Assembly (NCBI GenBank): GCA_033763455.1
Contig: JANRKO010000028.1
Coordinates: 128,001-192,000, forward strand
Direction of reading: 5' to 3'
Length of the DNA stretch: 64,000 bases
From: Polyangiaceae bacterium
Lineage (GTDB): Bacteria; Myxococcota_A; Polyangia; Polyangiales; Polyangiaceae
Part shown: one piece after another, positions 706-22,615 of the stretch
Numbering within the stretch: the stretch's first letter is position 1
Layout: every line of letters starts with the position of its first letter
Translations under genes and position numbers: made by a program
Notes under the pieces: generated by a model
What the model saw: only the letters and a program-made list of their open reading frames with translations
What the model was told of the DNA's origin: nothing
Databases searched by the model: none

Positions 706-722
706 CGAGGCATTTTGCCCCG
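706..722. promoter_or_regulatory. palindromic island motif CGAGGCA-TTT-TGCCCCG
   Basis: Matches the recurrent TGNGGCA-N3-TGCCNCA motif. Confidence 0.5.
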
Positions 723-820
723 CCCCCGCCGGCCAAACCTTTGACCCCTCAGTCAAAGGCACTTACGTTCGAAGTCGGCCTCGCCGAGTACTTTGTGTGT
801 TGTCTCAATTCGGATGGAGG

Positions 821-2257
821 TTAAGCATGCGACGTGCCAATTGCTCGAAGGCGTACGGCGGGCAAAGCATGCCTATCTTCTGGCGCGCTTCGAGGCACCG
901 AGCGTGGGCTTTCCCCTCCAACAAGTGTAGAAGAATGCCCCGTCGGACTGTGCGCTGAGGCACCATAGACAGGTGGCATATGCGCCTCGTAAAGCAACCG
1001 TTCGTGCCGGCACCACCACCCCGCCCCGTCATTTTCGGGCAGCCGACCGTCCGCAAGCTCTCGAACAAGGGAAGCGACATCGGTTTCGACGGGGACTCCG
1101 CCCTCCAGTCGCAAGACTCCCGGTTCGTACTTTCCGCCGTCCTCGGTTACCAGCTTGTTCCAGCCGAAAGAGCCGAGGAGCGCCCAGGCTGTCACGGCTC
1201 TAATGTCTAAGCCTCGCGCTTGCGCCGCCAGGCAAGAGCGCCACACGTACGCCAACCAACTCGCTTGCTCGCTTGGGCTGCAGGCTAGATGTGCTTCCGT
1301 GATCGCCATGGGTAGCCCGAAGCGATCGGCGGCGGACTCTAGCAATTGCAACGGACCCATGAGGCCAACCGCACACACGCGTACGGCCTCCACATCCACA
1401 TACGCGTGCCGCGCATTTCCGCCTACCATCTCGGGTGGGTAAAGGTGCAGGCGATTATCCAGGAAGCGTTCGCTCGTCACATAGTAGTTGAACCCGATAA
1501 CATTCGGTATACAGGGGTCATCTAGAAAGTAACCCAAGTCCGCATCGGTGGCGCCATTTTTCCTCAAGTAAGCGTTAAGCGGGTGGTGCCGGTCCACTTT
1601 GCCACATAGAAGATCTAAGCTTAGCCAACGCCGCCGATTTTCGAATTCTGCTTGATAGGCAAGCTCGTCCACGCTAGTACACACAGCTAGATCCTCAGTT
1701 TGGATGAGCTCCGCGTGAGGGATGGAGCGGCGAATGGCACGCATGGCGAGCACGGTGCCGCGGCACTGAATTAATAGAGCTCGAACGAAAGCCGCATCAC
1801 TCCGCGCGTGGGGGTACCAATGGCCGTAAAGGCCGGTAAAGCGAGCTGTGGTAAGGGGTTCGTTGATCGGTGTGAACTTGGTGAGCCAAGGATAGCGCTC
1901 GGCCACCCTGCCGGCGTACGCTGCCAGGAGCTCGGGGAACGCTGGATCGAGGAGGGACGTATGCGGCGGGCCGCTACCATGGTGAACAAGCCCCACAATG
2001 GGTTCGATGCCCAGTGCGTACAGCCTCGCGAGGCGTTCATCGGCCCACGCGAAATCGAGTTCCCTTCCTCGCGCGGCGCGTTCCCAAAGGATCGGGTAGC
2101 GAAGGGTTCGTAGCCCTAGCTCGTAGAAACGGTCGAGGTCAGAAATGCGCTCCGCGTGACCACTGTATTCGAGTTGATCGAAGTAACGATCGCCGACGCG
2201 ATTGACGGTGCATTCAAGCCCCCCCCATAGCGCGAGCGATGCGGGATGTGGATCCAC
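821..2257 (-). CDS. family 1 glycoside hydrolase (beta-glucosidase-like)
   Basis: WGGLECTVNR N-terminus, LVHHGSGP, acid/base INEP and nucleophile AITEAH motifs; typical neighbour of glf. Confidence 0.85.
   Translation of the reverse strand: MDPHPASLALWGGLECTVNRVGDRYFDQLEYSGHAERISDLDRFYELGLRTLRYPILWERAARGRELDFAWADERLARLYALGIEPIVGLVHHGSGPPHTSLLDPAFPELLAAYAGRVAERYPWLTKFTPINEPLTTARFTGLYGHWYPHARSDAAFVRALLIQCRGTVLAMRAIRRSIPHAELIQTEDLAVCTSVDELAYQAEFENRRRWLSLDLLCGKVDRHHPLNAYLRKNGATDADLGYFLDDPCIPNVIGFNYYVTSERFLDNRLHLYPPEMVGGNARHAYVDVEAVRVCAVGLMGPLQLLESAADRFGLPMAITEAHLACSPSEQASWLAYVWRSCLAAQARGLDIRAVTAWALLGSFGWNKLVTEDGGKYEPGVLRLEGGVPVETDVASLVRELADGRLPENDGAGWWCRHERLLYEAHMPPVYGASAHSPTGHSSTLVGGESPRSVPRSAPEDRHALPAVRLRAIGTSHA
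824..839 (-). promoter_or_regulatory. sigma54 -24/-12 promoter TGGCACG-TCGC-ATGCT
   Basis: GG-N10-GC consensus inside the last codons of the GH1 gene, pointing at ORF 134..655. Confidence 0.55.
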
Positions 2258-3371
2258 TAAATACCTCCTTCGTGCGGGTTGGGGTTCCGGCTTCTTGGAT
2301 GCCAGCGTACAGAGTGAGTGCCTGCGCCACGACCTGGTCCATGTTGTAATATCTGTAGGTAGCGAGGCGTCCGACGAAGTGCACCGGGCTTCGATCGGCT
2401 AGCTCCTTGTATTTTTCATACAGCGCTGCGTTTTCCGGCATTGGAACGGGGTAATAGGGGTCGCCTTCGGCACGCGGGTACTCGTAGACTATGCTCGTCT
2501 TGGCATGAACTTGGCCAGTGAGATGCTTGAACTCGGTGATACGTGTGTAGGCGTTTTCGTTTGGATAGTTCACCGTTCCCACCGCTTGGAACTGAGCGGC
2601 ATGGTGAGTGACGTGGCGAAATTCGAGCGAGCGGTAGGGGAGCTTGCCGAACCGGTAGTCAAAAAAGGCGTCGACCGGGCCCGTGTAGACCATCTCCCGA
2701 TGCGGAATCTCATTCACGACTTCCCGGTAGTCGGTATTGAGCATCACCTTGATGTTCGGATGCCGAAGCATGTTCTCGAACATCCGCGTGTAGCCAAAGA
2801 GCGGCATGGCCTGATAGGTATCCGTGAAATAGCGGTCATCTCGATTCGTACGAACCGGAATGCGTGCTGCCACTGACGCGTCGAGCTCAGAAGCCTCCAG
2901 GCCCCATTGCTTCCGCGTATAGCCACGAAAGAACTTTTCGTAGAGCTCGCGGCCAACCTTGGAAACCACAACATCCTCAGACGTCTTCGCGCTTCGCTTC
3001 TCGCGGACGCTCTCGAAGAATTGCTCAAGCTCGTCCGGGTTGAGCTGGGTACCGCGTAGTTGATTGATGGTATTTAGGTTGATGGGTATAGGAACGAGCT
3101 GGCCATCTACTTGAGCTAGCACCCGATGCTGGTAATCCCGCCACTCAGTGAAACGGGAAAGGTAGCTGAATACGTCCGCCGAATTCGTGTGAAAGATGTG
3201 AGGCCCGTATTTGTGAACCAGGATGCCGTGGTCGTCGTAGTGATCGTAGGCATTGCCAGCCACATGCGGGCGCTTATCAACAATCAGCACCCTTTTGTTT
3301 AAGTCTGAAGCGAGCCGCTCTGCCAGAACGCTGCCTGCAAAGCCGGCGCCGACCACCAAGTAATCGAACAC
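2214..3371 (-). CDS. glf: UDP-galactopyranose mutase
   Basis: VVGAGFAGS FAD motif, HKYGPHIFHT, GDPYYP, GRLATYRYYNMDQ signature motifs. Confidence 0.97.
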   Translation of the reverse strand: MFDYLVVGAGFAGSVLAERLASDLNKRVLIVDKRPHVAGNAYDHYDDHGILVHKYGPHIFHTNSADVFSYLSRFTEWRDYQHRVLAQVDGQLVPIPINLNTINQLRGTQLNPDELEQFFESVREKRSAKTSEDVVVSKVGRELYEKFFRGYTRKQWGLEASELDASVAARIPVRTNRDDRYFTDTYQAMPLFGYTRMFENMLRHPNIKVMLNTDYREVVNEIPHREMVYTGPVDAFFDYRFGKLPYRSLEFRHVTHHAAQFQAVGTVNYPNENAYTRITEFKHLTGQVHAKTSIVYEYPRAEGDPYYPVPMPENAALYEKYKELADRSPVHFVGRLATYRYYNMDQVVAQALTLYAGIQEAGTPTRTKEVFSGSTSRIARAMGGA

Positions 3372-4522: not shown

Positions 4523-4573
4523 GGATGTGTCCTTTTTGAGGGGGTGAAAAACACTAGGCGCGAAACGCTCCTA

Positions 4574-4589
4574 AGCAGATTCCGTGCCG
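4574..4589 (-). promoter_or_regulatory. sigma54 promoter CGGCACG-GAAT-CTGCT for GT-glf-GH1 operon
   Basis: GG-N10-GC consensus ~50 bp upstream of the start codon. Confidence 0.7.
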
Positions 4590-4686
4590 AGTGTGCGTTC
4601 CCCGGGAGTTGAAAGGGCTGATGCCAATTCTCAGTTTTCGCGCACGCTGGGGCTTTTTGAAGGGGCGGGAACCCACCCGGTAAATC

Positions 4687-4711
4687 AGCCACAGCGTGGC
4701 AAAGTGTCACA
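4687..4711. promoter_or_regulatory. putative enhancer (UAS) AGCCACA-G-CGTGGCA-AAG-TGTCACA
   Basis: Island motif lying ~100 bp from each of two divergent sigma54 promoters. Confidence 0.6.
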
Positions 4712-4812
4712 CGTTGAACTCCGCCCCATCACTTGCGCCGGAGGCTACCGCGCAGTTGTTCAAAGACTCTTCGATAGTGGAACTCGTAGTTGGCTCTATC
4801 GCCGAGCCTATT

Positions 4813-4828
4813 TGGTACGCCGTGTGCA
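4813..4828 (+). promoter_or_regulatory. sigma54 promoter TGGTACG-CCGT-GTGCA for GH2 operon
   Basis: GG-N10-GC, near consensus, upstream of GH2. Confidence 0.55.
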
Positions 4829-4888
4829 ACTCACTTCAGTGCTATGCCCGCCCATAGAGGGTGACGCAGCGGCGGAAATGAGCGGGCA

Positions 4889-6769: not shown

Positions 6770-6778
6770 GAGCTAACG

Positions 6779-8982: not shown

Positions 8983-8998
8983 AGCAAACATCGTGCCC
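8983..8998 (-). promoter_or_regulatory. sigma54 promoter GGGCACG-ATGT-TTGCT
   Basis: Near-perfect -24/-12 consensus upstream of the BON gene. Confidence 0.75.
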
Positions 8999-9105
8999 CA
9001 CGCGTGACGACCATCCATCAAGAGACAACTCGTAATTCCTGCCGCCGCGGGCTAGCTACAACGGTGGCATCATGAGGACGTGCTGCAAGTCTGCTTCACC
9101 ACGAG

Positions 9106-9131
9106 TGCCTCAAGTGTGGCGGATTGCACAG
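9106..9131. promoter_or_regulatory. putative enhancer TGCCTCA-AG-TGTGGCG-GAT-TGCACAG
   Basis: 108 bp upstream of the -24 box; 9100-9128 matches 16809-16837 at 23/29 positions. Confidence 0.65.
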
Positions 9132-10593: not shown

Positions 10594-10609
10594 AGCAAGG
10601 AGCGCGCCA
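10594..10609 (-). promoter_or_regulatory. sigma54 promoter TGGCGCG-CTCC-TTGCT
   Basis: Consensus match upstream of the GlsB-BON-DUF3341 operon; island motif CGTGGCA-AAG-CGCACCA at 10713-10729. Confidence 0.7.
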
Positions 10610-10772
10610 AACATGTGACTCTAAATCGACGGCTCTATTGCGTGTCACTCTGGCGCGGGTTGTGATTGGGGGTATCCGTTCAGATTTCGATATGCCTTTG
10701 GCATTTGGACGGCGTGGCAAAGCGCACCAGCGAGGGCTTTGTGCAACAAAAGGGTGCTGGCATGTTCGCCGA

Positions 10773-10857: not shown

Positions 10858-11361
10858 GTGACCTTGCAACGGCTATTAATGGGCTGCCTTCTTGGACTGA
10901 TCGCTACGGTGCCAATGAGTGCCGTCATGCTGGGCGGGAAGCGTTTGTTGAGGCCGGGGGATCGGGGGCCGCTTCCTCCGCAGCAAATCACGCACGAGGT
11001 TTTGGAGCGGGTGCGCGCTGGCGATCCGCCGGAACATCGGTCCATGGTGCCGGTCGCTGCCGTCCTTTTGGCTGAATCCGCGCTCACTCGTCCGCTGTCA
11101 CGGCTCCTTCATTTCGGGTACGGGGCCGCGATGGGCGCCACCTATGTGGAACTTTGCCACGGGCTCCCGAACACACGCAGCGGGATCGCCTTTGGGCTCG
11201 GCGTGTGGACCGCGAGCTATTGTGGATGGCTCCCCGCTCTGAGGTTCTCGTCCGCCGCAAAGGCACAGAGTGCGGCGCGTAACACGTTGATGATTGCGGC
11301 ACACGTCACCTGGGGCGCCGCGGCTGGCGCACTCGGTCGCGCCTGGCGCCGCACATTATAA
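10858..11361 (+). CDS. membrane protein (DUF1440-like)
   Basis: GLIATVPMS, PLPPQQIT, LHFGYGAAMG, FGLGVWTASY.GWLP, AHVTWG; GTG start with GGAGG. Confidence 0.75.
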   Translation: MTLQRLLMGCLLGLIATVPMSAVMLGGKRLLRPGDRGPLPPQQITHEVLERVRAGDPPEHRSMVPVAAVLLAESALTRPLSRLLHFGYGAAMGATYVELCHGLPNTRSGIAFGLGVWTASYCGWLPALRFSSAAKAQSAARNTLMIAAHVTWGAAAGALGRAWRRTL

Positions 11362-11484: not shown

Positions 11485-11931
11485 ATGAACGCAATAGATC
11501 TGCTCAAAGAAGACCACACCCTCGTGCGCGACCTTTTGGAACAACTCACAGCAACGTCCTCACGGGCAAAAAAGTCGCGTGCCGATCTCTTGGTCAAAAT
11601 CGCCCGCGAAATCCGAGTGCATGCCCAGATTGAGGAGGATATTTTTTATCCAGCGTTCCGCAAGGTCGCCAAGGATGATGCCATGTTCTTTGAAGCGCTA
11701 GAGGAGCACCGCGCCGTGGAGCGCCTCGTTCTGCCTGACTTAGAGAAGACTCCCGTGGACTCGGAGCGTTTCAGTGGGCGCGCGAAGGTGCTCAAGGACT
11801 TGATCGAGCACCACGCGGATGAGGAAGAAGAGGAGATGTTTCCCAAGGCCAAGAAGCTCATGGCTCGGGAAGACTTGGAGATGCTAGGGAAACGCATGCT
11901 TGCTTTAAAGAGTGAGCTTAAAGCGGCGTAA
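11485..11931 (+). CDS. hemerythrin-domain protein
   Basis: MNAIDLLKEDH, HAQIEEDIFYP, EALEEH, IEHHADEEEEEMFP metal-ligand pattern. Confidence 0.92.
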   Translation: MNAIDLLKEDHTLVRDLLEQLTATSSRAKKSRADLLVKIAREIRVHAQIEEDIFYPAFRKVAKDDAMFFEALEEHRAVERLVLPDLEKTPVDSERFSGRAKVLKDLIEHHADEEEEEMFPKAKKLMAREDLEMLGKRMLALKSELKAA

Positions 11932-11984
11932 CACTTTCGAGGGAAAAGCGTCCCGCAAACGTGCGCAGGCAGCCAAAATTTGCG

Positions 11985-12010
11985 TTCCCCAAGTGTGGCA
12001 AAATGCCCCA
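11985..12010. promoter_or_regulatory. island motif TTCCCCA-AG-TGTGGCA-AAA-TGCCCCA upstream of hybrid kinase
   Basis: Best match to the palindromic consensus, with an adjacent extra half-site. Confidence 0.6.
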
Positions 12011-12078
12011 GCGAGGGGTTCTCGGGGTGCGTGTGGTGGAAGGGTGAATGCAGTGCTTTCCGTGAACCCAAGTCGTGT

Positions 12079-14982
12079 ATGCTGACGCCCATGCCGGCAC
12101 CCGAGCAGCTAGACGCCCTTCGCGATTTCGTCGAGACTTCTTCGATTGGCCTGCATTGGGTGGCAGCCGACGGCACAATTCTATGGGCTAATCCGGCCGA
12201 TTACGTACCTCTCGGTTATTCGGAGAAAGAATATATCGGGCGCAATATTACAGAATTTCATGCCGACGCTACGGCCGTTTCCGATATTCTTCGAAGGCTA
12301 ACGTCAGGGGAGCGTCTGCACAACTATGAAGCGCGTCTGCGTTGTAAGGACGGCACGACGCGCAGGGTGCTCATTACCTCCAGCGTAAAATTCGACGAAA
12401 GTGGCGAGTTTGTCCATACTCGGTGTTTCACGGTGGACGTCTCGGAGCGCTGCCACGAGGTTACTGAGTTGCAGTTTGAAGCACTCAACCGCGAGGTCGA
12501 GCGCCTGCGTGTGCTCGCCTCACGCAAGCGTGGGCTTCTTGCGGCGATTCTTCAGCACAGCCCCCATGGCATCATCGTGTGTGACACCGAGGGCAAGCTC
12601 ACACTGCAAAATGAGGCGGCCGAGAAGATTTGGGCCGGCAGCGCCACCGCAGATACTGTGGCCGGTTGGGGTAAGTACCGTGCGTTTCATCCCGATGGGC
12701 GCCCATTCGAGGCCACCGATTGGTCCATGGCTCGCGCCCTCAGCAAGCGGGAGGTGGTGGCCGCCGACGAAATTCACATTCTGCGCTTCGATGACAGGCC
12801 CGCTGTGCTTTTGGGCAGTTCGGCACCCATTTTCGACAGCGAAGGGAAGCTGGAAGGCGCGCTTTCGGTGTTTGCCGACATCACCGAGTTTAAGCGACAA
12901 GATGCTGAGCTGCGTGTGAGCGCGGAGCGCTACGCCACCACTTTGCGGAGCATTGGAGACGCCGTAATTGCGACCGACGCCGGCGGCCATGTTACTTTCA
13001 TGAACCCGGTTGGCGAGAGCCTTACCAAGTGGACTTTGGCTGACGCCCTAGGAAAGCCACTGCACGAGGTCTTCCGAATTGTTAACGAGCATACGCGCGA
13101 GGTGGTGGAGAGTCCGGTAGATAAGGTCATTCGAGCGGGTAAGATCGTCGGCCTCGCCAACCACACCATCCTCACCGCGCGTGATGGCTCGGAGGTAGCC
13201 ATTGATGACAGTGGAGCTCCCATTTTCGGTGATGATGGTGCGTTGGTGGGGGTGGTTCTTGTGTTTCGAGACGTCACCGAGAAGCGTCGCGAGGAAGATC
13301 GCCGCCAGTTTATCGCCGGAGCCAGTGCCCACCTGGTCTCAAGCCTGGATTACGTCGCGACACTAACCACTGTGGCGAACCTTTCGGTGCCGACCATCGC
13401 GGACTGGTGCGCCATAGACATGGTGGCCGGTGAGGGCCGCGTTGAGCGCCTGGCTGTCGCGCATGCTGACCCCGGGAAGGTTCGGTTTGCGAAGGAAGTG
13501 GAGCAGAAGTATCCGCCGGATCCGCAGTCTCCGTACGGTGTGCACGAGGTGATTCGAACCGGCAAGGCCCAGATGATGAGCGAAATCCCCGAGGCCCTCT
13601 TGATAGCGGCCGCCGTTGACGACGAACACCTGCGAATTATTGAGGAGTTGGGGTTGAAGTCTTCGATGGTGGTGCCGCTTCGCTGCCGGGGCAGGATCTT
13701 AGGGGCAATCACCTTCGTTGCCGCCGAGTCCAATCGCCGGTTTGGCCCGCTAGATTTGTCGCTCGCCGAGGAAATTGCTGGCATCGCCGCGCTCGCGGTT
13801 GACAACGCGCGCCTCTACCGCGAGGCGCAGAATGCCAATAGCGCTAAGGATGAGTTTCTGGCCACCGTATCGCACGAGCTTCGCACACCGCTCAGCGCAA
13901 TTCTTGGTTGGGCGCACCTCCTGAACAACAACGGGCTACCGGAGGAGAAACGGCAGCACGCCTTAGAGGTGATTGAACGCAATGCTCGAGCTCAGGCACA
14001 ACTCATTGAGGATCTGCTCGACGTTTCTCGGATCATATCGGGGAAATTAAGGCTAGAAACGCGAGCATTCGACCTCGCCACAATTATTAGCGCAGCAGTG
14101 GATGGTGTGCGGCCAGCTGCGGAGGCGAAAAACGTGAGGATCAGCCTTCAGGTTGATGACGCCGCACGCAACGCGGTGGGTGACCCCGACAGGCTTCAAC
14201 AAGTAGTTTGGAACTTACTGTCGAACGCTGTGAAGTTTACGGGGAAGAATGATACGGTTACGATCCAGCTTACGCGTGAGGGTTCTCACGCGGAGATTGG
14301 TGTTACCGATACCGGTATGGGTATTGAGCCGCAGCACTTACCGCACATTTTCGAGCGCTTTAAGCAGGCAAACGCGACCACGACCCGATCGCACGGCGGG
14401 TTAGGGCTGGGCCTTTCCATTGTGAAACACCTCGTTGAGCTACATGGGGGAACTGTCACCGCAGCCAGTGAAGGTGCGAACCGGGGCTCGTCGTTCAAAG
14501 TCAGGCTGCCGCTCGGCGGTGTTTCGCCTTCTCAAACAATCCTGCATGCATCCTCGCGGCATACTTGGGAAGCCCCCCGCCTTGAGGGGTTAAAAGTCCT
14601 CGTTGTCGATGATGAAGAAGATACTCGGCGTCTCGTTGTGACGGTGCTCGAGGCTCACGGAGCCATTGTCACCTCCGTCGGCTCCGCTGCGCACGCGCTA
14701 CGCGAAGTGGAACGGGAGCCTCCCGACGTGCTCGTCAGTGACGTTGGTATGCCCGAAGAAGACGGCTACAGCCTAATTCGCAAGGTACGCGTTGTGATGA
14801 AGGAGCGGGGCCGTCCGCTGCCTGCAGTTGCCCTCACAGCCTACGCTCGCCGGGAAGATAGGACACGCGCGCTCTTGGCGGGGTTTCAGTCACACGTGGT
14901 GAAACCGTTTTCGCCAGATGAGCTGTTGATCGTGGTGGCAACCCTTGCAGGCAGAACCGAAGAGTCTTGTCCGTTGGGCTGA
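12079..14982 (+). CDS. hybrid sensor histidine kinase (3xPAS-GAF-HisKA-HATPase-REC)
   Basis: FLATVSHELRTPL H-box, NLLSNAVKF, DTGMGI, GGLGLGL, receiver VVDDEED/LVSDVGMP/KP. Confidence 0.93.
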   Translation: MLTPMPAPEQLDALRDFVETSSIGLHWVAADGTILWANPADYVPLGYSEKEYIGRNITEFHADATAVSDILRRLTSGERLHNYEARLRCKDGTTRRVLITSSVKFDESGEFVHTRCFTVDVSERCHEVTELQFEALNREVERLRVLASRKRGLLAAILQHSPHGIIVCDTEGKLTLQNEAAEKIWAGSATADTVAGWGKYRAFHPDGRPFEATDWSMARALSKREVVAADEIHILRFDDRPAVLLGSSAPIFDSEGKLEGALSVFADITEFKRQDAELRVSAERYATTLRSIGDAVIATDAGGHVTFMNPVGESLTKWTLADALGKPLHEVFRIVNEHTREVVESPVDKVIRAGKIVGLANHTILTARDGSEVAIDDSGAPIFGDDGALVGVVLVFRDVTEKRREEDRRQFIAGASAHLVSSLDYVATLTTVANLSVPTIADWCAIDMVAGEGRVERLAVAHADPGKVRFAKEVEQKYPPDPQSPYGVHEVIRTGKAQMMSEIPEALLIAAAVDDEHLRIIEELGLKSSMVVPLRCRGRILGAITFVAAESNRRFGPLDLSLAEEIAGIAALAVDNARLYREAQNANSAKDEFLATVSHELRTPLSAILGWAHLLNNNGLPEEKRQHALEVIERNARAQAQLIEDLLDVSRIISGKLRLETRAFDLATIISAAVDGVRPAAEAKNVRISLQVDDAARNAVGDPDRLQQVVWNLLSNAVKFTGKNDTVTIQLTREGSHAEIGVTDTGMGIEPQHLPHIFERFKQANATTTRSHGGLGLGLSIVKHLVELHGGTVTAASEGANRGSSFKVRLPLGGVSPSQTILHASSRHTWEAPRLEGLKVLVVDDEEDTRRLVVTVLEAHGAIVTSVGSAAHALREVEREPPDVLVSDVGMPEEDGYSLIRKVRVVMKERGRPLPAVALTAYARREDRTRALLAGFQSHVVKPFSPDELLIVVATLAGRTEESCPLG

Positions 14983-15101
14983 GCTGAGCCCCATTCACGA
15001 GTGGCGCGGAGTTAAGGCGGGGTTCTCCTCCGCGGCCTCCATCTCCTCGATCCAATCGGAGAAAGTGGGCTCCACGGATGCGGCGGGGAAGTGGCGGACT
15101 G

Positions 15102-16661
15102 CTACTGATGCAAGATCCTCCACAGGCGCCCAGCTTTGTCGTCGCTCACATAGAGCGACCCATCTGGCCCCTCACCAACACCGACGGGCCGGTACATCGC
15201 CTGCTCCGGAAGCGGCCGGTTCGGTCCCGCAAAGCCATCTGCGAACATTTCGGCGGCAATCCCTGGTTGCCCATTGGTGAACGGCAGGAACATAACGCTG
15301 TAGCCGGGGAGGGCGCCGGGGGGATTGGGAGTGAACCGGGAGCCGTGAAACGCTACGAGTAGGCCGCCCTGATAGCGAGCAGGGAATTGATCACCCGTGT
15401 AGAAATGCATCCCCAAAGGCGCAAGGTGAGCCGGGAAGGCGAACTTAGGAAGGGGCACCGCACCGCAGCGTCCGGCATCCACGCCGTTTCCGCCATACTC
15501 CGGTGCCAACACGTTGCCACGGCCGCCGTCGTGATAGCAGTAGGGCCATCCATAGTCAGCGCCGTTCGCAATGAGGTACAGGGCTTCCGACGGTAGATTC
15601 TGATCTTGCGTGGCGGAAAAGAGGCCAGGCCAATTTTCATTTAATTGGTCCCGTCCATTTTGCACACCCCAGAGTTCGCTCGTGCCAGGCCTAATGGCGA
15701 GTGCGGTGGTATTTCTTAAACCGCTACCGTAGCGCAAACCGTCAGTTTGGATCTGCCCGAGCAAGCCCGGTTCGAAACGCCACACACCCGCTCGCGTGAG
15801 CAGCTCGGGGCAGGGGTCGATGCCGGGGGAGAGCAACGTGCGGTTCTGAAGCTGGCAAGAATTCGTGGCGGAACCAATATTCACAAATAGTCGCGCATCA
15901 GGGCCAAAAACGATCGATTTTGACGCATGATCGCCCGTGCCCGGCAACCCCGAAACAACCACTTCAGGGGCACTAGAAGGGGTCAGCACACCATTGGGGA
16001 GTGCCCAGCGAACTACCCGGGTATTTTCAGCGAAGTAAAGGTACCCGTCTCGCCATTCGATGCCATTTCCGCCCTCGTTACCGAACGTCTGCCGCTGATC
16101 GAGCTTTCCGTTCCCGGTGGTGTCGCGAAGAGCCACGACTTTTCCTTTGGTAATCCCGTCCGTCGAATTGTTGATCGCCACAAATACGTCACCGCTCGGA
16201 GCGATGGCAAAATGCCTCGCTGGGCCAAGATTGTCTGCCACAGCGAGGGCACAGAATCCCGGAGGCAACGTTAATCCGCCATTGTCAGCGTCACAGGCAA
16301 CTTGCACCGGTGCGCCCCCTGCGCCACCACTCCCACCTGCCATGCCGGCACTTCCTGCCATGCCAGCGCTTCCTGCAACGCCCCCCTGCCCGGCGCTTCC
16401 ACCTAAGCTATTGCTACCTCCGATGGTGGGGGTTCCAGCTGCGCCAGCGGCTGCTCCAGCTGCGCCGCCTGCGGGATTTGCCTTTCCTCCGCTGCCAGGA
16501 GTGCCGCCCGTGGCTTTGCCGCCGGTCCCACCGGTCCTCCCGCCCGTGGTACCAGTGCCGGGCCCTGGATCGTCCGTGTCATCGCTGCAAGCAATTGGAA
16601 CGGCGAGAAGAAGCAAAGGCAACAGGGAAACCTTGAGTAACTGCGAACGAGAGTATGACAT
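15102..16661 (-). CDS. sorbosone/glucose dehydrogenase-family beta-propeller lipoprotein with Gly-rich linker
   Basis: PIAC lipobox; GGLTLPPGFCA, GSATNSCQ, GLRNT, DYGWPYCY, AHLAPLGMHFY, AFHGS, GPDGSLYVSDD. Confidence 0.87.
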   Translation of the reverse strand: MSYSRSQLLKVSLLPLLLLAVPIACSDDTDDPGPGTGTTGGRTGGTGGKATGGTPGSGGKANPAGGAAGAAAGAAGTPTIGGSNSLGGSAGQGGVAGSAGMAGSAGMAGGSGGAGGAPVQVACDADNGGLTLPPGFCALAVADNLGPARHFAIAPSGDVFVAINNSTDGITKGKVVALRDTTGNGKLDQRQTFGNEGGNGIEWRDGYLYFAENTRVVRWALPNGVLTPSSAPEVVVSGLPGTGDHASKSIVFGPDARLFVNIGSATNSCQLQNRTLLSPGIDPCPELLTRAGVWRFEPGLLGQIQTDGLRYGSGLRNTTALAIRPGTSELWGVQNGRDQLNENWPGLFSATQDQNLPSEALYLIANGADYGWPYCYHDGGRGNVLAPEYGGNGVDAGRCGAVPLPKFAFPAHLAPLGMHFYTGDQFPARYQGGLLVAFHGSRFTPNPPGALPGYSVMFLPFTNGQPGIAAEMFADGFAGPNRPLPEQAMYRPVGVGEGPDGSLYVSDDKAGRLWRILHQ

Positions 16662-16704
16662 TCTAGATTCTCCAAAGTAATAAATCTTAACTTCGTGAGA
16701 GCTC

Positions 16705-16720
16705 TGCAACGAACGTGCCG
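16705..16720 (-). promoter_or_regulatory. sigma54 promoter CGGCACG-TTCG-TTGCA
   Basis: Near-perfect consensus 44 bp upstream of ATG 16661. Confidence 0.75.
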
Positions 16721-16814
16721 CCATTTCGAAACCATGTGTTGCTACAAGCACCTGAAAGCAACCGGAGCGTACGAAAGGCGCGCGAGGAAGATCCGCAAGA
16801 CGCTACATCACGAG

Positions 16815-16840
16815 TGCCACAGTTGTGGCAGGATGCATCC
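16815..16840. promoter_or_regulatory. putative enhancer TGCCACA-GT-TGTGGCA-GGA-TGCATCC
   Basis: Between two divergent sigma54 promoters; 23/29 identical to the 9100-9128 site. Confidence 0.65.
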
Positions 16841-16907
16841 TCGGCAATTGCCATTTAACCATTAAAGGGTATTGGCTGCGTGATTGCGGGACCTTATGCC
16901 CCAGTGC

Positions 16908-16923
16908 TGGCACACGCCTTGCT
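16908..16923 (+). promoter_or_regulatory. sigma54 promoter TGGCACA-CGCC-TTGCT
   Basis: Near-perfect consensus upstream of a small lipoprotein gene. Confidence 0.75.
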
Positions 16924-16981
16924 GGGGGAGGAGTAATGCGTCGCTTGTGGTCGATGCTTCCCAACATTAGGAGAATGAGAA

Positions 16982-17206
16982 ATGAAGATTGGATGGTATT
17001 TGGCAGTTCTTAGTCTATCTATGTGCGCTGCGTGTGGCGGAGGCCAGAAAGAGCCTGAAGATGCGGATGGTGCCGCTGAAAGGGCCGGCGAACGCATCGA
17101 TACCGCAGCGGAGAAGGCGGGCTCCGAAGCGGAGGAAGCCACCGAAGATGTTGGCGAAGCGGTGGAAGATGCAGGTGATGATATTCAGGAAAAATCTAAC
17201 GAGTAA
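16982..17206 (+). CDS. small acidic lipoprotein (LEA/CsbD-like amphipathic repeats)
   Basis: AGGAG upstream, CAAC lipobox, 11-residue-periodic E/A/D-rich body. Confidence 0.8.
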   Translation: MKIGWYLAVLSLSMCAACGGGQKEPEDADGAAERAGERIDTAAEKAGSEAEEATEDVGEAVEDAGDDIQEKSNE

Positions 17207-17250
17207 ATCCGCAAAGGTTAAAAGTCCAAAGAGTAAATCCGCAAAGGTTA
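17201..17250. repeat. 20-bp direct repeat x2, 30-bp period
   Basis: GAGTAAATCCGCAAAGGTTA at 17201-17220 and 17231-17250. Confidence 0.9.
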
Positions 17251-17313
17251 GAAGATTTGCAGACGCTCGTAGTGGGTGACCTGCGGAGACTTGGTATTTA
17301 GAAAGGTTCTACT

Positions 17314-17613
17314 ATGATTCAGCGAGTAATTGCGTTGTCGTTCTTGTTTTGTGCGGTCTCTCTTGGGTGCAGCGACGATCCCGTTGAGCAGATAACGAAC
17401 AAGATAACGTGCAGAGATGTGTGTGGGCGCTATAAGGATTGTATCGACTCCAACTACAATGTGGATATGTGCGTGAGCAAATGTGAGGCGGATGCTTCCG
17501 CGGAAGAGGCCAAGGAGCAGAAGCTCAACACGTGTGAAACCTGCTTGGATGACAAGTCCTGCACGGATTCGGTATTCAAGTGTGGAGTCGAATGTACGGG
17601 TGTGGTGCCGTAA
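17314..17613 (+). CDS. small Cys-rich lipoprotein
   Basis: SLGC lipobox followed by CxxxC/CxxC pairs; GAAAGG upstream. Confidence 0.8.
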   Translation: MIQRVIALSFLFCAVSLGCSDDPVEQITNKITCRDVCGRYKDCIDSNYNVDMCVSKCEADASAEEAKEQKLNTCETCLDDKSCTDSVFKCGVECTGVVP

Positions 17614-17672
17614 GCTTGCCTTCTTGCCATCGACCCAAGGCGGTCGCTTCACAGGGGGGTGTGATTCGTTGA

Positions 17673-17698
17673 GCCACCCCGGGCAAACCCGGGGTGGC
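17673..17698. terminator. perfect 11-bp hairpin
   Basis: GCCACCCCGGG-CAAA-CCCGGGGTGGC downstream of the lipoprotein genes. Confidence 0.6.
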
Positions 17699-17714
17699 AT
17701 TAGATGAGATCTCG

Positions 17715-17731
17715 GGTGGCAAATTGCCCCG
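17715..17731. promoter_or_regulatory. island motif GGTGGCA-AAT-TGCCCCG upstream of acnA
   Basis: Palindromic consensus match ~70 bp before ATG 17800. Confidence 0.55.
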
Positions 17732-17799
17732 CGGAAGAGTGCTTTCGGATTCTGACCTAGCCTGGCCGTTGTGCTCGTGGGATTTTGCTTCAACCGACA

Positions 17800-20487
17800 A
17801 TGACCATATCTTCCCACGACTCGTTTTCGACGTTCCGACAACTGCAGGTGCCGGCTGGCACCCGCGGCTACTTCAGCTTACCAGCGCTTGCTGAAAGTGT
17901 GCGGGTGGATCTCGCACGCCTCCCATACTGTCTTCGCGTTTTGCTTGAGAACTTGCTCCGATGCGAGGATGGAAAATCCGTGACGCGTCAAGATATTCTG
18001 GCGCTCGCGGCCTGGGAACCGCAGGGCAACGCCCATGGTGAGATCGCCTTTCACCCGGCACGCGTGGTGCTTCAGGATTTTACGGGCGTCCCCGTAATCG
18101 TAGATCTTGCAGCGTTGCGTGATGCCATGGCGGAAATGGGTGGGGATCCCTCAAAGATCAACCCGCTGTTTCCGCTTGAGCTAGTGATCGATCACTCAGT
18201 GCAAGTTGATTCCTACGGCAGCTTAGATTCTCTATTGGTAAATACACGCAAGGAGTACGAACGGAACACCGAGCGTTATACGTTGTTGCGCTGGGCGCAG
18301 AATGCCTTCAACAACCTGAAGGTGGTGCCCCCGCAAACAGGTATTGTGCACCAGGTGAACTTGGAGCATTTGGCGCGGGTAGTCTTTGACTCTGAGGGCC
18401 TGCTCTACCCGGACACACTGGTCGGCACGGACAGCCATACCACCATGATCAACGGGCTTGGCGTGCTGGGGTGGGGTGTCGGCGGTATTGAAGCGGAGGC
18501 TGCCATGCTTGGGCAGCCCATCAGCATATTGATTCCGGAAGTTGTGGGGTTTCGTTTGCGTGGCAAGTTACCGCCGGGTAGTACCGCTACGGACCTCGTG
18601 CTGACCATTACGCGTCTGTTGCGCGATGTGGGTGTGGTGGAAAAGTTTGTCGAATTCTTTGGCGAAGGCCTGGATGATTTGCCGCTCGCGGATCGCGCTA
18701 CGATTAGTAACATGAGCCCAGAATTCGGCTCAACTTGCGCCATTTTTCCGATTGATGAGCAGACGCTCCGCTACCTTCGCCTTACCGGAAGAACGGATGA
18801 AGAGGTGGCGGTTATTGAGGCGTACACGCGCGCGCAAGGCTTCTTCCGAACCGCAGATGCTGTGGAGCCTGTATTCACGCAGGTGCTTGAGCTCGATCTT
18901 GGCACTGTCGTTCCTAGCTTAGCGGGTCCGCGGCGGCCGGAAGATAAAGTGGCTTTGAGTGCCGCCAAAGCAACTTGGGAGTCAGAGCTTGCTACGCTCA
19001 TCTCCAGCGCTCGCGCTGAACCAGCCGCCGTCGCTTTTGTTAACGCATCCAACCAAACCTTTGCGTTGAGTCACGGCAGCATCGTAATAGCCGCCATCAC
19101 ATCCTGCACCAATACGTCCAATCCTGCCGTCATGATGGCAGCCGGCCTCTTAGCACGAAATGCTCGTGCACACGGCCTAGAAGTAAAACCCTGGGTGAAG
19201 ACAAGCTTGGCGCCCGGCTCGAAGGTGGTAACCCGTTACCTAGAAGATGCCGGCGTGCTTCAAGATCTGGAGGCTTTGCGGTTTAACGTGGTGGGGTACG
19301 GCTGTACTACGTGTATTGGAAATAGTGGCCCTCTAGACGCACCGATTTCAGAAGCCGTGAACGCTCACAATCTTGTGGTGGTAAGCGTGCTCAGCGGGAA
19401 CCGCAATTTTGAAGGTCGCATCAGCCCTGATGTGCGCGCTAATTTCCTTGCGAGCCCTCCTTTGGTAGTGGCCTACGCCTTGGTGGGTCGGATGGACGTG
19501 GACCTGTTGACGGAGCCGTTGGGAGTGGATAGGAGTGGCAATAACGTCTTCCTGAGGGACATTTGGCCGTCGCCAGAGGAGGTGCAACGAGCAGTTCAGG
19601 CCCACGTGCAGGTCAGCCTGTACCGGGAGGAATATGCGAGTGTCTTTGAAGGAGATGCGGTCTGGAAAGCTCTGCCGGTTCCTCGCGAGCGCCTTTTCGC
19701 GTGGGATGCGGGGAGCACCTACGTGAGGCGTCCGAGTTTTCTGGAAGGCATTCCTCGTGAGCCTGCACCACTTGATGACATCCGGGGCGCGCGCGTTCTC
19801 GCCAAGCTCGGGGACTCGGTAACCACCGATCATATCTCCCCAGCCGGGAATATCTCCAAGGCATCGCCCGCGGGCGCTTACCTGCAAATGCATGGCGTGA
19901 AAGTTGCGGACTTTAATTCCTACGGTGCTCGTCGAGGCAACCACGAGGTCATGGTGCGCGGCACGTTTGCCAACGTGCGGCTGCGAAATCAGCTAGCCCC
20001 TGGAACGGAGGGCGGCCTCACTCGTCTCCTTCCTGACGGAGGCATCACATCACTCTTCGACGCCGCAGAGGCCTATCAAGCCAGCGGAACGCCCCTCTTG
20101 GTCCTGGCCGGCAAAGATTACGGCACCGGCTCGTCGCGCGATTGGGCGGCCAAAGGTACACGGCTTTTGGGGGTGAAAGCTGTCCTCGCAGAATCCTTCG
20201 AGCGCATTCACCGCAGCAACTTGATCGGCATGGGGGTCTTGCCTCTGCAATTTTTGCCCGGCCAGAGTGCTTTTACGCTAGGCCTCTCCGGTGAGGAGCG
20301 TTTCGATATTCAAGGCATCGCGAGTGCGCTTAGCCTCTCCAAGCTGCTGGATGTCGCCGCAACGGCCTCCGATGGACAGGTAAAACATTTTCGGGTCGTG
20401 TGTCGCATCGATACGCTGGTGGAGCTGGACTACTACTCGCATGGCGGCATTTTGCCCTTCGTTTTGCGCCAACTGCTGAGGGCGTGA
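17800..20487 (+). CDS. acnA: aconitate hydratase A
   Basis: QDFTGVP, DHSVQVD, GTDSHT, AITSCTNTSNP, GYGCTTCIGNSG, TTDHISP, GSSRDWAAKG. Confidence 0.97.
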   Translation: MTISSHDSFSTFRQLQVPAGTRGYFSLPALAESVRVDLARLPYCLRVLLENLLRCEDGKSVTRQDILALAAWEPQGNAHGEIAFHPARVVLQDFTGVPVIVDLAALRDAMAEMGGDPSKINPLFPLELVIDHSVQVDSYGSLDSLLVNTRKEYERNTERYTLLRWAQNAFNNLKVVPPQTGIVHQVNLEHLARVVFDSEGLLYPDTLVGTDSHTTMINGLGVLGWGVGGIEAEAAMLGQPISILIPEVVGFRLRGKLPPGSTATDLVLTITRLLRDVGVVEKFVEFFGEGLDDLPLADRATISNMSPEFGSTCAIFPIDEQTLRYLRLTGRTDEEVAVIEAYTRAQGFFRTADAVEPVFTQVLELDLGTVVPSLAGPRRPEDKVALSAAKATWESELATLISSARAEPAAVAFVNASNQTFALSHGSIVIAAITSCTNTSNPAVMMAAGLLARNARAHGLEVKPWVKTSLAPGSKVVTRYLEDAGVLQDLEALRFNVVGYGCTTCIGNSGPLDAPISEAVNAHNLVVVSVLSGNRNFEGRISPDVRANFLASPPLVVAYALVGRMDVDLLTEPLGVDRSGNNVFLRDIWPSPEEVQRAVQAHVQVSLYREEYASVFEGDAVWKALPVPRERLFAWDAGSTYVRRPSFLEGIPREPAPLDDIRGARVLAKLGDSVTTDHISPAGNISKASPAGAYLQMHGVKVADFNSYGARRGNHEVMVRGTFANVRLRNQLAPGTEGGLTRLLPDGGITSLFDAAEAYQASGTPLLVLAGKDYGTGSSRDWAAKGTRLLGVKAVLAESFERIHRSNLIGMGVLPLQFLPGQSAFTLGLSGEERFDIQGIASALSLSKLLDVAATASDGQVKHFRVVCRIDTLVELDYYSHGGILPFVLRQLLRA

Positions 20488-20557
20488 CGCCCAACGTGGC
20501 CCCCTTCGGAGCCGGACGCCCCCCCTCGATTTCATGGAGTAATTGGGTGCGTGCAGG

Positions 20558-20710
20558 CTAAAGCGATGTCCGCCGACCGGTAATCAAGTTGATCAGCACC
20601 ACCACAATCGCCACTACCAATAACAGGTGAACGAACCCACCCATGGTATAGGAAGTGACCAGCCCGAGTGCCCAGAGCACCAACAGAATAACAGCAATTG
20701 TCCACAACAT
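20558..20710 (-). CDS. 50-aa lmo0937-family (DUF5670-like) membrane protein, absent from the ORF track
   Basis: Manual translation MLWTIAVILLVLWALGLVTSYTMGGFVHLLLVVAIVVVLINLITGRRTSL*; AAGGA SD; own sigma54 promoter. Confidence 0.9.
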   Translation of the reverse strand: MLWTIAVILLVLWALGLVTSYTMGGFVHLLLVVAIVVVLINLITGRRTSL

Positions 20711-20781
20711 GAGTATTTCCTTGAGTTTGCCTGAGAGGGGTTAGCCCCGGTTGCTTCCTTGTGGGGAGGTAAGTGCCATCC

Positions 20782-20797
20782 AGCAAGCATCGTGCCG
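20782..20797 (-). promoter_or_regulatory. sigma54 promoter CGGCACG-ATGC-TTGCT
   Basis: Near-perfect consensus upstream of the small membrane protein gene. Confidence 0.75.
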
Positions 20798-20897
20798 CTG
20801 GTGGAACAGGGCAGATGCGGTGTTCAGACGCCATGCCAACGCGGGATTCGCGTCCCACCCAAAGCCGGGAGACCATCACCGCGGTGCCATTGCGCAA

Positions 20898-20923
20898 CGG
20901 CGCAACTTGCCCCACGTGTGGCA
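20898..20923. promoter_or_regulatory. putative enhancer CGGCGCA-ACT-TGCCCCA-CG-TGTGGCA
   Basis: Island motif 100-125 bp upstream of the -24 box. Confidence 0.6.
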
Positions 20924-20953
20924 ATTCACACCGTTCTTCGATTCTCTTTTTGG

Positions 20954-22606
20954 TCAAGCTATCTGAGGCACAGCCGCGAGAACTTCTAGCAACTGATGCG
21001 CATCCACTGGCTTCACCAGATGCGCCTCAAATCCGGCCGCAGCGCTCCTTGCTTTGTCGCTCGTTTGACCGTAGCCGGTAAGCGCGACCATTCGGCAGCC
21101 GGTACAGCTTGGGAGTGCGTGGAGCTTTTTCGCAAGCGTGTAGCCGTCCATGACGGGCAAACCTATGTCGAGTACCGCGAACTCCGGTCGAAATTCACCA
21201 GCGAGTTCGAGAGCCGCGAGTGGTTCTGTGGCGACCGCGACCTCGTGACCAAAAGAGCGCAAAATGTCCCCAAGCACTTCGGCCGCGTCGACGTTGTCGT
21301 CAACCACGAGGATTCGCTTCGAAATACCAGGCTGGGAGCGTGCCACCTCTGCCCTAGGGATTTGAGAACTGGTAGAGCCCGCGCGAGCAGGTAGACGAAC
21401 CCGAAATTCACTACCCAGACCCAGGCCAGCACTCACTGCACTCACGCTGCCCCCATGAAGCTGAACTAGATTCTTAACGAGAGCTAGGCCAACGCCCAGG
21501 CCCCCTCCTGGTCGCCCTTGGCCGCGAGGTGCCTGCGCAAACATGTCGAAGATGTTCGGAAGAATATCGGGCGCGATGCCTATGCCGTCGTCCTTTACGC
21601 AGAGCACGATCTCATCTTTCTCTCGAAACGCGGAGAGCTCGATGTGGCCGCCTGGGTGCGTATAGCGTGCGGCGTTGGTTAACAGATTAGCGACAACTTG
21701 GGATATTCGCACGGCATCCACGCGAACCCGTAGCCCTGTCCGCGGGACGTGCACTAAAAGCGTACTGCCTCGATTTTCTAGCAGAAAGCTAGCCATCTCG
21801 ATCGCTTCGGCGACCACCGTCCCAAGCTCCACCCATTCTTTACGGAGCTGGACTTTGCCGCGGGTGATTTTGGAGACATCCAAAAGGTCGTCTACCAGGC
21901 GCACCAGGTGCGTCACATGCCGTTCGATAAGCGCAAGCTCACGAGTGAGCTTGCCAGAATTTCGGAGCTTCACGAGTCCAATCGCCGTCACGATTGGAGA
22001 AAGTGGGTTGCGGAGCTCGTGACCCAACATAGCAAAGAATTCGTCCTTCGCGTTGTTGGCGGCCTCAAGGTCGCGGAGCAATCGCTCTCGTTCTGAGTAA
22101 GAGCGCTCCACAACGTGTCGGGCGCTTGCGGGGTCACTGATTTCGAGGCCGGCGATCATCAGCCCACTCACTACCCCCTCCTGCTGGATGGGCTCGACGT
22201 TGAAGCAAAATAGCGCCTCTTGGGGCTGGCCCTCTCCCGTGCGGGTCAAACTCATCCGGAATTCTGAAGTCGAAAAAGGATTCCCCGTTCGATACACCTC
22301 GCTCAATATCCCAACAAATTCACTGCCTTCCAATTCAGGAAACACTGCCGAAAAAGGCTTGCCAACAATGTCTCTCCTTCCAGCGATCTGGCAGTACCGC
22401 TCATTGGCTAACTCAAACGTGAGGTTATCTCCAGATAGCACCGCCACCGCGAATGGTGCTCTGTGCAGCAGGCGGTCGAGCGCATCGGCACGAGTGCTAT
22501 CCGTTGGAGGCGATGAGCTTGACGATGGTTTGGCGGGCACGGAAGTAAGATGAGACGATTTGGAAGCAACGTTCAAGGTTTTCTCAGGCTCAATGTCATG
22601 GGGCAA
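20954..22606 (-). CDS. hybrid sensor histidine kinase (PAS-HisKA-HATPase-REC); start uncertain
   Basis: FFAMLGHELRNPL, NLLTNAARY, DDGIGI, GGLGVGL, receiver VVDDNVD/VLDIGLP/KP. Confidence 0.92.
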   Translation of the reverse strand: MPHDIEPEKTLNVASKSSHLTSVPAKPSSSSSPPTDSTRADALDRLLHRAPFAVAVLSGDNLTFELANERYCQIAGRRDIVGKPFSAVFPELEGSEFVGILSEVYRTGNPFSTSEFRMSLTRTGEGQPQEALFCFNVEPIQQEGVVSGLMIAGLEISDPASARHVVERSYSERERLLRDLEAANNAKDEFFAMLGHELRNPLSPIVTAIGLVKLRNSGKLTRELALIERHVTHLVRLVDDLLDVSKITRGKVQLRKEWVELGTVVAEAIEMASFLLENRGSTLLVHVPRTGLRVRVDAVRISQVVANLLTNAARYTHPGGHIELSAFREKDEIVLCVKDDGIGIAPDILPNIFDMFAQAPRGQGRPGGGLGVGLALVKNLVQLHGGSVSAVSAGLGLGSEFRVRLPARAGSTSSQIPRAEVARSQPGISKRILVVDDNVDAAEVLGDILRSFGHEVAVATEPLAALELAGEFRPEFAVLDIGLPVMDGYTLAKKLHALPSCTGCRMVALTGYGQTSDKARSAAAGFEAHLVKPVDAHQLLEVLAAVPQIA

Positions 22607-22615
22607 ATTGCCTCA
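22599..22615. promoter_or_regulatory. island motif TGGGGCA-AAT-TGCCTCA at the 5' end of the kinase gene
   Basis: Near-perfect palindromic consensus. Confidence 0.55.

Follow-up and report, generated by a model that had tools for sequence, protein, structure and literature searches.

A palindromic motif as predicted enhancer of sigma-54 stress promoters in Polyangiaceae and its candidate NtrC-type activator

Identification of the palindromic motif

We analyzed a window of 64,000 nucleotides from a Polyangiaceae bacterium (source genome G000, contig C28, positions 128001–192000; positions without a contig name refer to this window) for a recurrent 17-bp palindrome, YGDGGCA-N3-TGCCHCR, which was recovered de novo from the gene island at positions 1–24000. 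Judged from sequence comparison, the palindrome is probably an enhancer at sigma-54 stress promoters that is bound by a single NtrC-type activator, and the protein encoded outside the window at G000:C33:2409-3776 is the most likely candidate for this activator. Three congeneric genomes are referred to as G001, G002 and G003.

A palindromic expectation-maximization (EM) search of the 13 intergenic regions of the island, with the sigma-54 sites masked, yielded nGgGGCA-N3-TGCCcCn. The log-likelihood was 49, 58 and 66 at widths of 15, 17 and 19 bp, compared to 28, 34 and 38 for the best of 12 shuffles, so that the intergenic motif proposed by a previous, sequence-only reading of this DNA is significant. 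Widths of 16 and 18 bp performed much worse (36 at width 16 vs. at most 30 in shuffles). A 16-bp primary site, TGCCNCA-N2-TGNGGCA, was rejected by this measure (36 at width 16 vs. 58 at width 17) and because the spacer can be either 1 or 2 bp long. Within the 17-mer, positions G2 and C16 are nearly invariant.

The sequence-only reading had placed nine copies of the pattern TGNGGCA-N3-TGCCNCA. A copy is present at all nine places, but most copies are degenerate. Six of the coordinates fit; those at 9106, 11985 and 16815 mark the start of an extra half-site, and the respective 17-mers begin 9 bp later (9115, 11994 and 16824). The pattern is matched exactly at 11994 and 22599, with two mismatches at 706, 4695, 16824, 17715 and 20898, and with three at 10713. 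The copy at 9115 has more than two and was not listed in a search allowing up to two mismatches. A reported identity of 23/29 nucleotides between 9100–9128 and 16809–16837 is exact. Beyond the nine, there is a tandem partner at 20917, and intragenic matches occur at 11145 and 1590. The raw count is weak evidence: with up to two mismatches, the 64 kb contain 10 matches vs. 4.8 expected, a number reached in 4 of 100 shuffles. Scored with a matrix built from the nine window copies, the sites at 706, 11994, 17715 and 22599 rank highest (19–23 bits). No match to an Rfam family was found in positions 1–25000. A match of 18.6 bits within the dnaK coding sequence (32603–32619) is probably due to chance.

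Arrangement of sites and promoters in the island

The island comprises genes typical of general stress islands as judged by Pfam and NCBIfam: two BON/OsmY proteins, a transglycosylase-associated (GlsB-like) protein, YflT, a hemerythrin-domain protein and DUF5670, together with sorbosone dehydrogenase, aconitase AcnA, sugar-modifying enzymes and two hybrid histidine kinases. It continues leftward on the same contig with long catalase, CsbD, LigD, YtxH and DUF4398/OmpA genes. G000 has one rpoN gene and 29 full sigma-54 activators. A sigma-54 matrix trained on this genome gave 11 good intergenic sites in positions 1–23000; a weak one at 347 was set aside. Genes were called with our own hexamer caller, which missed some starts and open reading frames (ORFs; ORF 655-134 was absent and the start of the candidate activator was wrong). 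The features are listed below; the palindromic sites have no strand.

134–655, minus strand: ORF of 173 aa, no Pfam family, target of the promoter at 824–840; 42% identical match in G002
706–722: 17-bp site within the ORF 655-134 leader; the promoter at 824–840 lies 124 bp upstream of it; 19.4 bits
824–840, minus strand: sigma-54 -24/-12 site of ORF 655-134; 15.4 bits; kept upstream of the orthologues in G002 and G003
4574–4590, minus strand: sigma-54 site of the glycosyltransferase / UDP-galactopyranose mutase operon (Pfam); 16.0 bits; kept in G001 and G002
4687–4711: half-site and 17-bp site (4695–4711), centre 115/111 bp from divergent sigma-54 promoters; 17.4 bits; congener matches weak
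4812–4828, plus strand: sigma-54 site of the GH2 glycosidase / aminotransferase operon; 13.3 bits; gene order differs in congeners
8983–8999, minus strand: sigma-54 site of a BON (OsmY-like) gene (Pfam, NCBIfam); 16.6 bits
9106–9131: half-site and 17-bp site (9115–9131), centre 126 bp from the BON promoter; 12.5 bits, 9.4 when left out of the matrix
10594–10610, minus strand: sigma-54 site of the GlsB/transglycosylase-associated, BON and YflT operon; 18.7 bits; kept in G001–G003, with a motif match 71–73 bp upstream there
10713–10729: 17-bp site, centre 113/53 bp from divergent sigma-54 promoters; 15.7 bits
10772–10788, plus strand: sigma-54 site of a DUF1440 gene; 16.2 bits
11392–11408, plus strand: sigma-54 site of a hemerythrin-domain (PA2171-like) gene; 15.8 bits; nearest motif match intragenic, at 11145, 241 bp off
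11985–12010: half-site and exact 17-bp site (11994–12010) upstream of the PAS-GAF hybrid kinase gene, without a sigma-54 promoter; 22.0 bits
12091–14982, plus strand: cytoplasmic PAS-GAF-HisKA-HATPase-REC hybrid kinase (Pfam), a possible signal input
16705–16721, minus strand: sigma-54 site of a glucose/sorbosone dehydrogenase gene; 14.9 bits; kept in G001
16815–16840: half-site and 17-bp site (16824–16840), centre 113/77 bp from divergent sigma-54 promoters; 12.6 bits
16907–16923, plus strand: sigma-54 site of a small lipoprotein-like gene; 20.4 bits
17715–17731: 17-bp site upstream of aconitase AcnA, without a sigma-54 promoter; 20.7 bits; absent in congeners
20782–20798, minus strand: sigma-54 site of a DUF5670 small membrane protein gene (Pfam); 17.4 bits
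20898–20933: two abutting 17-bp sites (20898 and 20917, period 19), centres 110/129 bp from the DUF5670 promoter; 17.7/13.2 bits
20954–22447, minus strand: HisKA-HATPase-REC hybrid kinase (Pfam), a possible signal input
22599–22623: exact 17-bp site and partial half-site upstream of the hybrid kinase gene; 22.6 bits
22905–22921, plus strand: sigma-54 site of a holin-X-like gene pair; 15.0 bits; 300 bp from the nearest strong site; kept in G001–G003

Five copies begin 96–109 bp from the first G of a -24 box, in agreement with the range of 95–110 bp given before, and the block at 4687–4711 is indeed nearly equidistant from two divergent promoters (99 and 103 bp). Measured from the centre, the distances of the five are 115/111, 126, 113, 113 and 110 bp; three of these copies lie between divergent promoters and serve both. 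The enhancer distance is not confirmed for the copies in general, since those at 706, 11994, 17715 and 22599 have no sigma-54 site at such a distance in reading direction. The range expected for enhancers is 80–150 bp upstream of -24/-12 sites according to PMC7910581. Site-promoter distances range from ~50 to 150 bp, with 50–130 bp upstream of stress-gene promoters as the recurrent placement, and several are closer than 80 bp (50–75 bp).

The site at 706–722 may be a downstream enhancer or a negative site. In one congener, the orthologue of ORF 655-134 has its site 105 bp upstream instead. For the block at 11985–12010 the best sigma-54-like score is 5.3, and the site is absent in congeners. 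The site at 22599–22623 has no sigma-54 promoter towards the kinase gene and lies 300 bp from the promoter at 22907; in G001 and G002 the upstream region of the orthologue has retained it. A sigma-70 scan of positions 11900–23000 gave 5 sites vs. 3.5 expected, none of them assignable to the four orphan copies. The block at 16815–16840 is a conserved footprint in G001, at 153 bp there, and a pair akin to 20898–20933 (period 18) follows the orthologous kinase gene in G001.

Neighbouring half-sites favour an offset of 18–19 bp (5 of 60 sides in G000, 7 of 64 in the congeners and 15 of 108 in other genera), compared to 0–3 at any other single offset from 12 to 35. We therefore take the extra half-site as the near half of a second, weaker 17-mer. 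The gap between neighbouring 17-mers is 1–2 bp (period 18–19 bp); most strong sites have no strong neighbour. There is a hint of helical phasing, with distances clustering near a period of 10–10.5 bp (Rayleigh p = 4e-4 at period 10, n = 42). We treat this as no more than a lead, since seven periods were tried on related, non-independent genomes and phasing is absent from the eight distances within the window itself.

Some further observations concern the window itself. The product of ORF 134–655, previously unannotated, has homologues in G002 and G003 and a paralogue on contig C39. Short direct duplications of ~25–30 bp, two copies each, occur in intergenic or leader DNA at 17201–17262 and 22787–22862. 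The dnaA gene is located within 38325–41378, divergent from a 369-aa ORF at 40269 (no Pfam match at 1e-5); no dnaN was found among the ORFs scanned. The DnaA protein is closest to Polyangiaceae/Myxococcales records (identity up to 73–76%).

Positional bias and conservation outside the window

The proposed co-occurrence with sigma-54 sites also holds out of sample. In G000, 23 non-coding matches outside the island score at least 14 bits, and 8 of these 23 lie 45–135 bp from a sigma-54 site, against a background of 1.7% overall and 7.3% in the adjacent part of C28. Orthologous regions of the three congeners (319 kb) contain 24 matches 40–160 bp upstream of 112 sigma-54 sites vs. 3.2 expected from the local density. 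Four genomes of other genera that carry the subfamily of the candidate activator gave 10 of 20 strict copies with a sigma-54 site downstream (chance 9.4%). Outside the class, in nine genomes without a close member, the number was 2 of 20 (chance 3.5%), and most copies lay in ORFs or repeats.

Predicted targets include BON/OsmY, GlsB, YflT, DUF5670, the catalase operon, DUF1328 and DUF4136. The genes behind sites in other genera encode a triple-BON protein, DUF1328, DUF4136, a Rho_N small protein and a DAG-kinase-like protein. Sites turn over within the genus: the sorbosone dehydrogenase footprint, the GlsB site and the copy at 22599 are kept in congeners, and those at 4695, 11994 and 17715 are not. 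On contig C54 of G000, a match to an ice-binding protein (L229:1066-1953; NCBIfam IBP_CFB, 229 bits with a cut-off of 400) has a sigma-54 site with the motif 52 bp upstream.

Chance, or a repeat family within GC-rich intergenic sequence, could explain the marginal raw count as well as the several strict copies outside the class that lie in ORFs or identical repeats. The significance of the EM search, the bias out of sample, the footprints conserved within diverged spacers and the missing Rfam match in positions 1–25000 speak against this reading. It is largely refuted by the independent de novo recovery of the motif, and we regard it as scarcely credible.

The palindromes could also form two overlapping classes, in which the degenerate tandem copies are sigma-54 enhancers and the near-perfect single copies (706, 11994, 17715 and 22599) belong to another factor or have no function. 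Score and promoter type separate cleanly in the window, the copies at 11994 and 17715 are not kept in congeners, and genome G200 has several strict copies without a sigma-54 site. Near-perfect copies do, however, occur at enhancer distance elsewhere (C59:57755 at 52 bp and both copies of G031), the copy at 22599 is conserved in G001 and G002, and that at 11994 has the same abutting half-site as the tandem copies. Such a division is very unlikely. In G200 (L187, L189–L192), five near-identical strict copies with A/T-rich spacers lie near gene starts without sigma-54 sites; some have a partner ~21 bp away, perhaps a second mode of use.

The candidate activator

The protein at G000:C33:2409-3776 has the domain order REC-AAA+(GAFTDA)-HTH. 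The phospho-accepting aspartate of the receiver, the Walker A and B motifs, the GAFTDA loop and the HTH_8 domain are intact; GAFTDA is listed as compatible with activation in PMC4641369. An upstream match of at least 13 bits is found for three of the 29 activators of G000, namely C33:2409-3776, C92:87846 and C28:37011. The first has a sigma-54 promoter of its own, with tandem sites at 113 and 95 bp in G001–G003 and a site at 71 bp in G000. At the junction of this site pair, nine bases are invariant within otherwise diverged DNA. In G001 the activator gene and the island orthologues are located on one contig.

The candidate scores below every NCBIfam equivalog cut-off, the best models being AtoC, NtrC and ZraR. 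Its subfamily is expanded in Polyangia (support 99) in a tree of 72 activators, which was built by a quick method and is used here solely for the clustering of the motif-flanked genes within a single inner group. Sites of at least 13 bits within 400 bp were found at 15 of 39 subfamily loci and then at 9 of 27 further loci, compared to 83 of 3853 ordinary genes. Three of the 39 loci are from congeners; the G000 gene and two loci judged non-members were left out.

An EM search without the window matrix was run on 30 regions upstream of sigma-54 sites (25 of 61 loci, other genera) and returned nGngGC(A/G)-N3-(T/C)GCcnCn with a log-likelihood of 99 vs. at most 31 in four shuffles, which had half as many starts. 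These regions were chosen only by a sigma-54 site beside an activator gene of the subfamily. An earlier search on the activator flanks had been dominated by a TTC/GAA-rich, probably coding signal, hence the restriction to regions upstream of sigma-54 sites.

Of the 48 genomes of the class, 26 carry the subfamily (E < 1e-130) and 22 do not; the strict pattern is present in 16 of the former and 2 of the latter, and the reversed-pattern controls in 6 and 6. Fisher's p of 2e-4 overstates this association, because related genomes are not independent, the pattern was designed after seeing the upstream matches of the G000 activators, only six candidates were scored per genome, and two of the genomes counted as lacking the subfamily have truncated matches that are possibly members. 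The subfamily is also present in the cultured Sorangium cellulosum So ce56 and Minicystis rosea. In genome G022, a 155-aa stand-alone HTH_8 protein (L095:2932-3396) is encoded directly 3' of the activator gene, followed by a short kinase.

Alternative readers of the motif

The enhancer might be read also, or instead, by the paralogue C20:54519-55892 or by another of the 29 activators. Matches upstream of C92:87846 (15.6 bits) and C28:37011 (13.2 bits) are single, and none of the orthologues examined has retained its match (0 of 3 and 0 of 4), so that both were rejected; at the thresholds used, neither protein was found in G010, the genome richest in the motif. The paralogue, which shares features with the candidate that are taken up below, lies in a chemotaxis/flagellin cluster, where the best site over 30 kb does not exceed 10.4 bits. 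Taken together, a reader besides or instead of the C33 protein is unlikely, although the paralogue could be a second one. By eye, a flagellin-like gene with a sigma-54 site is divergent from this paralogue, and the chemotaxis cluster is large (L146, G000:C20:53500-57500).

Alternatively, the motif could be a site of the RegA/PrrA/RegR type, bound at sigma-70 promoters by the AAA-less REC-HTH_8 protein C38:44854-45405, in which case its closeness to sigma-54 sites would reflect a promoter-dense island. The RegR box GNGRCRTTNNGNCGC as given in PMC5506826 has the same length and geometry and differs mainly at position 14. The best NCBIfam model of C38:44854-45405 is ActR/PrrA/RegA, below the cut-off, and none of the four best window copies has a sigma-54 promoter. 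The G at position 14 of the RegR consensus is rare in our motif (3%); the other positions are compatible. The distribution of the motif argues against this protein. Genomes with the activator subfamily and no RegA match have 41 copies vs. 9 in controls (11 genomes), whereas those with RegA and no subfamily have 9 vs. 7 (7 genomes). No site of at least 13 bits was found at 12 of 12 regA loci, and the motif persists in draft genomes without regA. Since its distribution follows the activator subfamily and not regA, RegA was rejected as the reader, and we consider this explanation highly improbable.

A number of observations weigh against control of the island by the C33 protein from enhancer positions. 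The four best-scoring of the nine window copies are not located at such positions, and the island sigma-54 promoters at 838, 11394 and 22907 have no strong upstream intergenic site. Matches to an IHF consensus between sites and promoters were found only with two mismatches and in 2 of 8 intervals. Counted without a gene model, 13 matches lie 40–160 bp upstream of 410 sigma-54 sites vs. ~5 expected, and the 300 bp downstream hold 9 altogether. Many orthologous promoters in the congeners lack a match of at least 10 bits, 24 of the 39 subfamily loci have no flanking site, and 10 of the 26 subfamily-bearing genomes no strict match. In G200, 5 of 6 strict copies have no sigma-54 site. The paralogue C20:54519-55892 has the GAFTDA loop and the same recognition helix, RRTLYRKL, as the C33 protein. 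The earlier proposal of one activator outside the window controlling the island is supported with qualifications. The candidate carries the motif at its promoter, and the two occur together across genomes; some island promoters have no site, several sites are lost in congeners, and four of nine copies are off enhancer positions.

The partner kinase

Next to the candidate activator gene, C33:3788-4579 (L081) encodes a partner kinase, with orthologues at L117, L127, L132, L089 and L252. In G000, the three congeners, G005 and G225 the partner has 240–265 aa and no sensor. Elsewhere the picture is different: at 73 loci examined, a partner kinase was visible in 29, with an intact AHE(L/I)GTPL box in 27 of 29 and a HAMP domain in those checked. 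In these sensor-less partners, including C33:3788-4579, the histidine and the threonine at H+4 are kept, and the glutamate at H+1 is replaced by alanine. The N, G1 and G2 boxes are lost in five aligned partners (the four genomes of the genus and G005), and G225 has the same H-box. A structural model of the partner keeps the histidine-kinase core fold (pLDDT 79), and ZraS is the best match of the family in the Protein Data Bank (PDB). ChpT is not among the Foldseek matches listed for the model.

Judged by established kinase motifs, a partner without these ATP-binding boxes should not be expected to autophosphorylate. The protein is possibly a histidine-kinase remnant, derived from a HAMP sensor kinase and acting as a phosphotransferase or phosphatase. 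With the H+4 threonine kept, it could equally be a phosphotransferase fed by the cytoplasmic hybrid kinases of the island or a dedicated phosphatase.

Proposed mechanism

In activators of this family, phosphorylation of the receiver allows oligomerization, and the AAA+ ring reaches the sigma-54 closed complex by DNA looping. Dimers on upstream sites, control by the receiver and AAA+-driven opening of sigma-54 promoters are described in PMC7175178. For the island we envisage that two activator dimers would occupy abutting sites with a period of 18–19 bp and that the activator would boost its own gene. The regulon would be a general-stress programme of about 16 promoters in G000, 8 in the window and 8 outside; the gene content points to general stress rather than to low oxygen alone. 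The activator would be expected to occupy the near-perfect sites in front of the kinase genes first; together with the copy preceding the aconitase gene, the sites of the two hybrid kinases may exert feedback at non-sigma-54 promoters. More speculatively, phosphate might pass from the island hybrid kinases via the sensor-less pseudo-kinase to the activator.

The control logic as such is textbook. What is unusual is that sites abut in pairs, that strong sites lie at kinase promoters not of the sigma-54 type, and that the partner kinase has decayed. Taken to its full extent, the scheme would have Polyangiaceae run their general stress response via sigma-54 and one autoregulated activator with abutting dimer sites. 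An ancestral membrane-sensor kinase would have decayed to a sensor-less, ATP-blind pseudo-kinase that funnels phosphate from cytoplasmic PAS/GAF hybrid kinases, with feedback on the kinase genes at non-sigma-54 promoters. We put this full version forward tentatively and think it rather doubtful as a whole. If true, a ChpT-like phosphorelay would have arisen independently here, in the service of a sigma-54 master switch of the stress response. For general-stress-type genes of Polyangiaceae, the analysis provides a motif, names a candidate activator and lists target promoters. The model is testable in Sorangium cellulosum So ce56 and Minicystis rosea, because the same activator subfamily is present there. 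No account of the motif or the activator was found in the papers searched, and a match to the site of another activator of M. xanthus or Desulfovibrio is possible.

Comparison with known systems

A close parallel in overall design is NmpR of Myxococcus xanthus. As described in PMC11841059, NmpR is likewise a myxobacterial REC-AAA+-HTH activator with paired dyad sites upstream of sigma-54 promoters, autoregulation, multi-kinase input and stress-type targets (hemerythrin and CBS for NmpR). Its site as given there is GCGCA-N5-TGCGC, mostly with 14–15 bp between sites, whereas the core found here is GGCA-N3-TGCC, which differs at positions 5 and 6, with 1–2 bp between the 17-mers. No NmpR-type sites were found in the intergenic DNA of the island, and two matches with one mismatch in positions 1–24000 are both located inside genes. 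G000 has a separate protoglobin-kinase/activator locus (C23:153490-156638) with NmpR-type sites at the activator's sigma-54 promoter. NmpR was thus rejected as the reader of our motif, since the island lacks its sites and the protoglobin kinase lies beside a different activator. The argument from autoregulation has a positive control in the C23 locus. The larger region C23:152487-157132 comprises the protoglobin kinase, the activator and flanking Usp-like ORFs (by eye) and is likely an NmpR-like oxygen system in Polyangiaceae.

LuxO is the end of a phosphorelay fed by hybrid kinases. The LuxO site of Vibrio cholerae, ttgca-N3-tgcaa in PMC10328515, shares the GCA-N3-TGC core geometry with our motif, and LuxO is also a REC-AAA+-HTH activator. 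The flanks are GG/CC here vs. TT/AA in that site, the targets differ, and the candidate, with a score of 366, stays below the LuxO cut-off of 800. The boxes of RegR, PrrA and RegA (15-bp core GNGRCR-N3-NGNCNC in PMC5506826) resemble the palindrome, and a Fis-type HTH is common to both. RegA, unlike our candidate, has no AAA+ domain, and the motif tracks the activator subfamily.

ZraS/ZraR and AtoS/AtoC are similar with respect to the best NCBIfam models of the candidate (AtoC, NtrC and ZraR) and to the partner kinase family, which is nearest to ZraS in the PDB. The candidate, however, belongs to an unnamed subfamily, and its partner lacks the sensor and the ATP-binding boxes in this genus and two others. 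As judged from sequence and model, C33:3788-4579 would resemble ChpT in having a DHp and catalytic-domain fold with the histidine kept, the ATP-binding boxes lost and no sensor.

The general stress regulons of RpoS, SigB and EcfG comprise OsmY/BON, CsbD, long catalase, YflT, GlsB, LigD, AcnA and DUF1328. The same gene content is present here. The difference would be in the switch: these genes have -24/-12 promoters with a predicted enhancer, and control would be exerted by a phosphorylated activator together with sigma-54 instead of an alternative sigma-70 factor.

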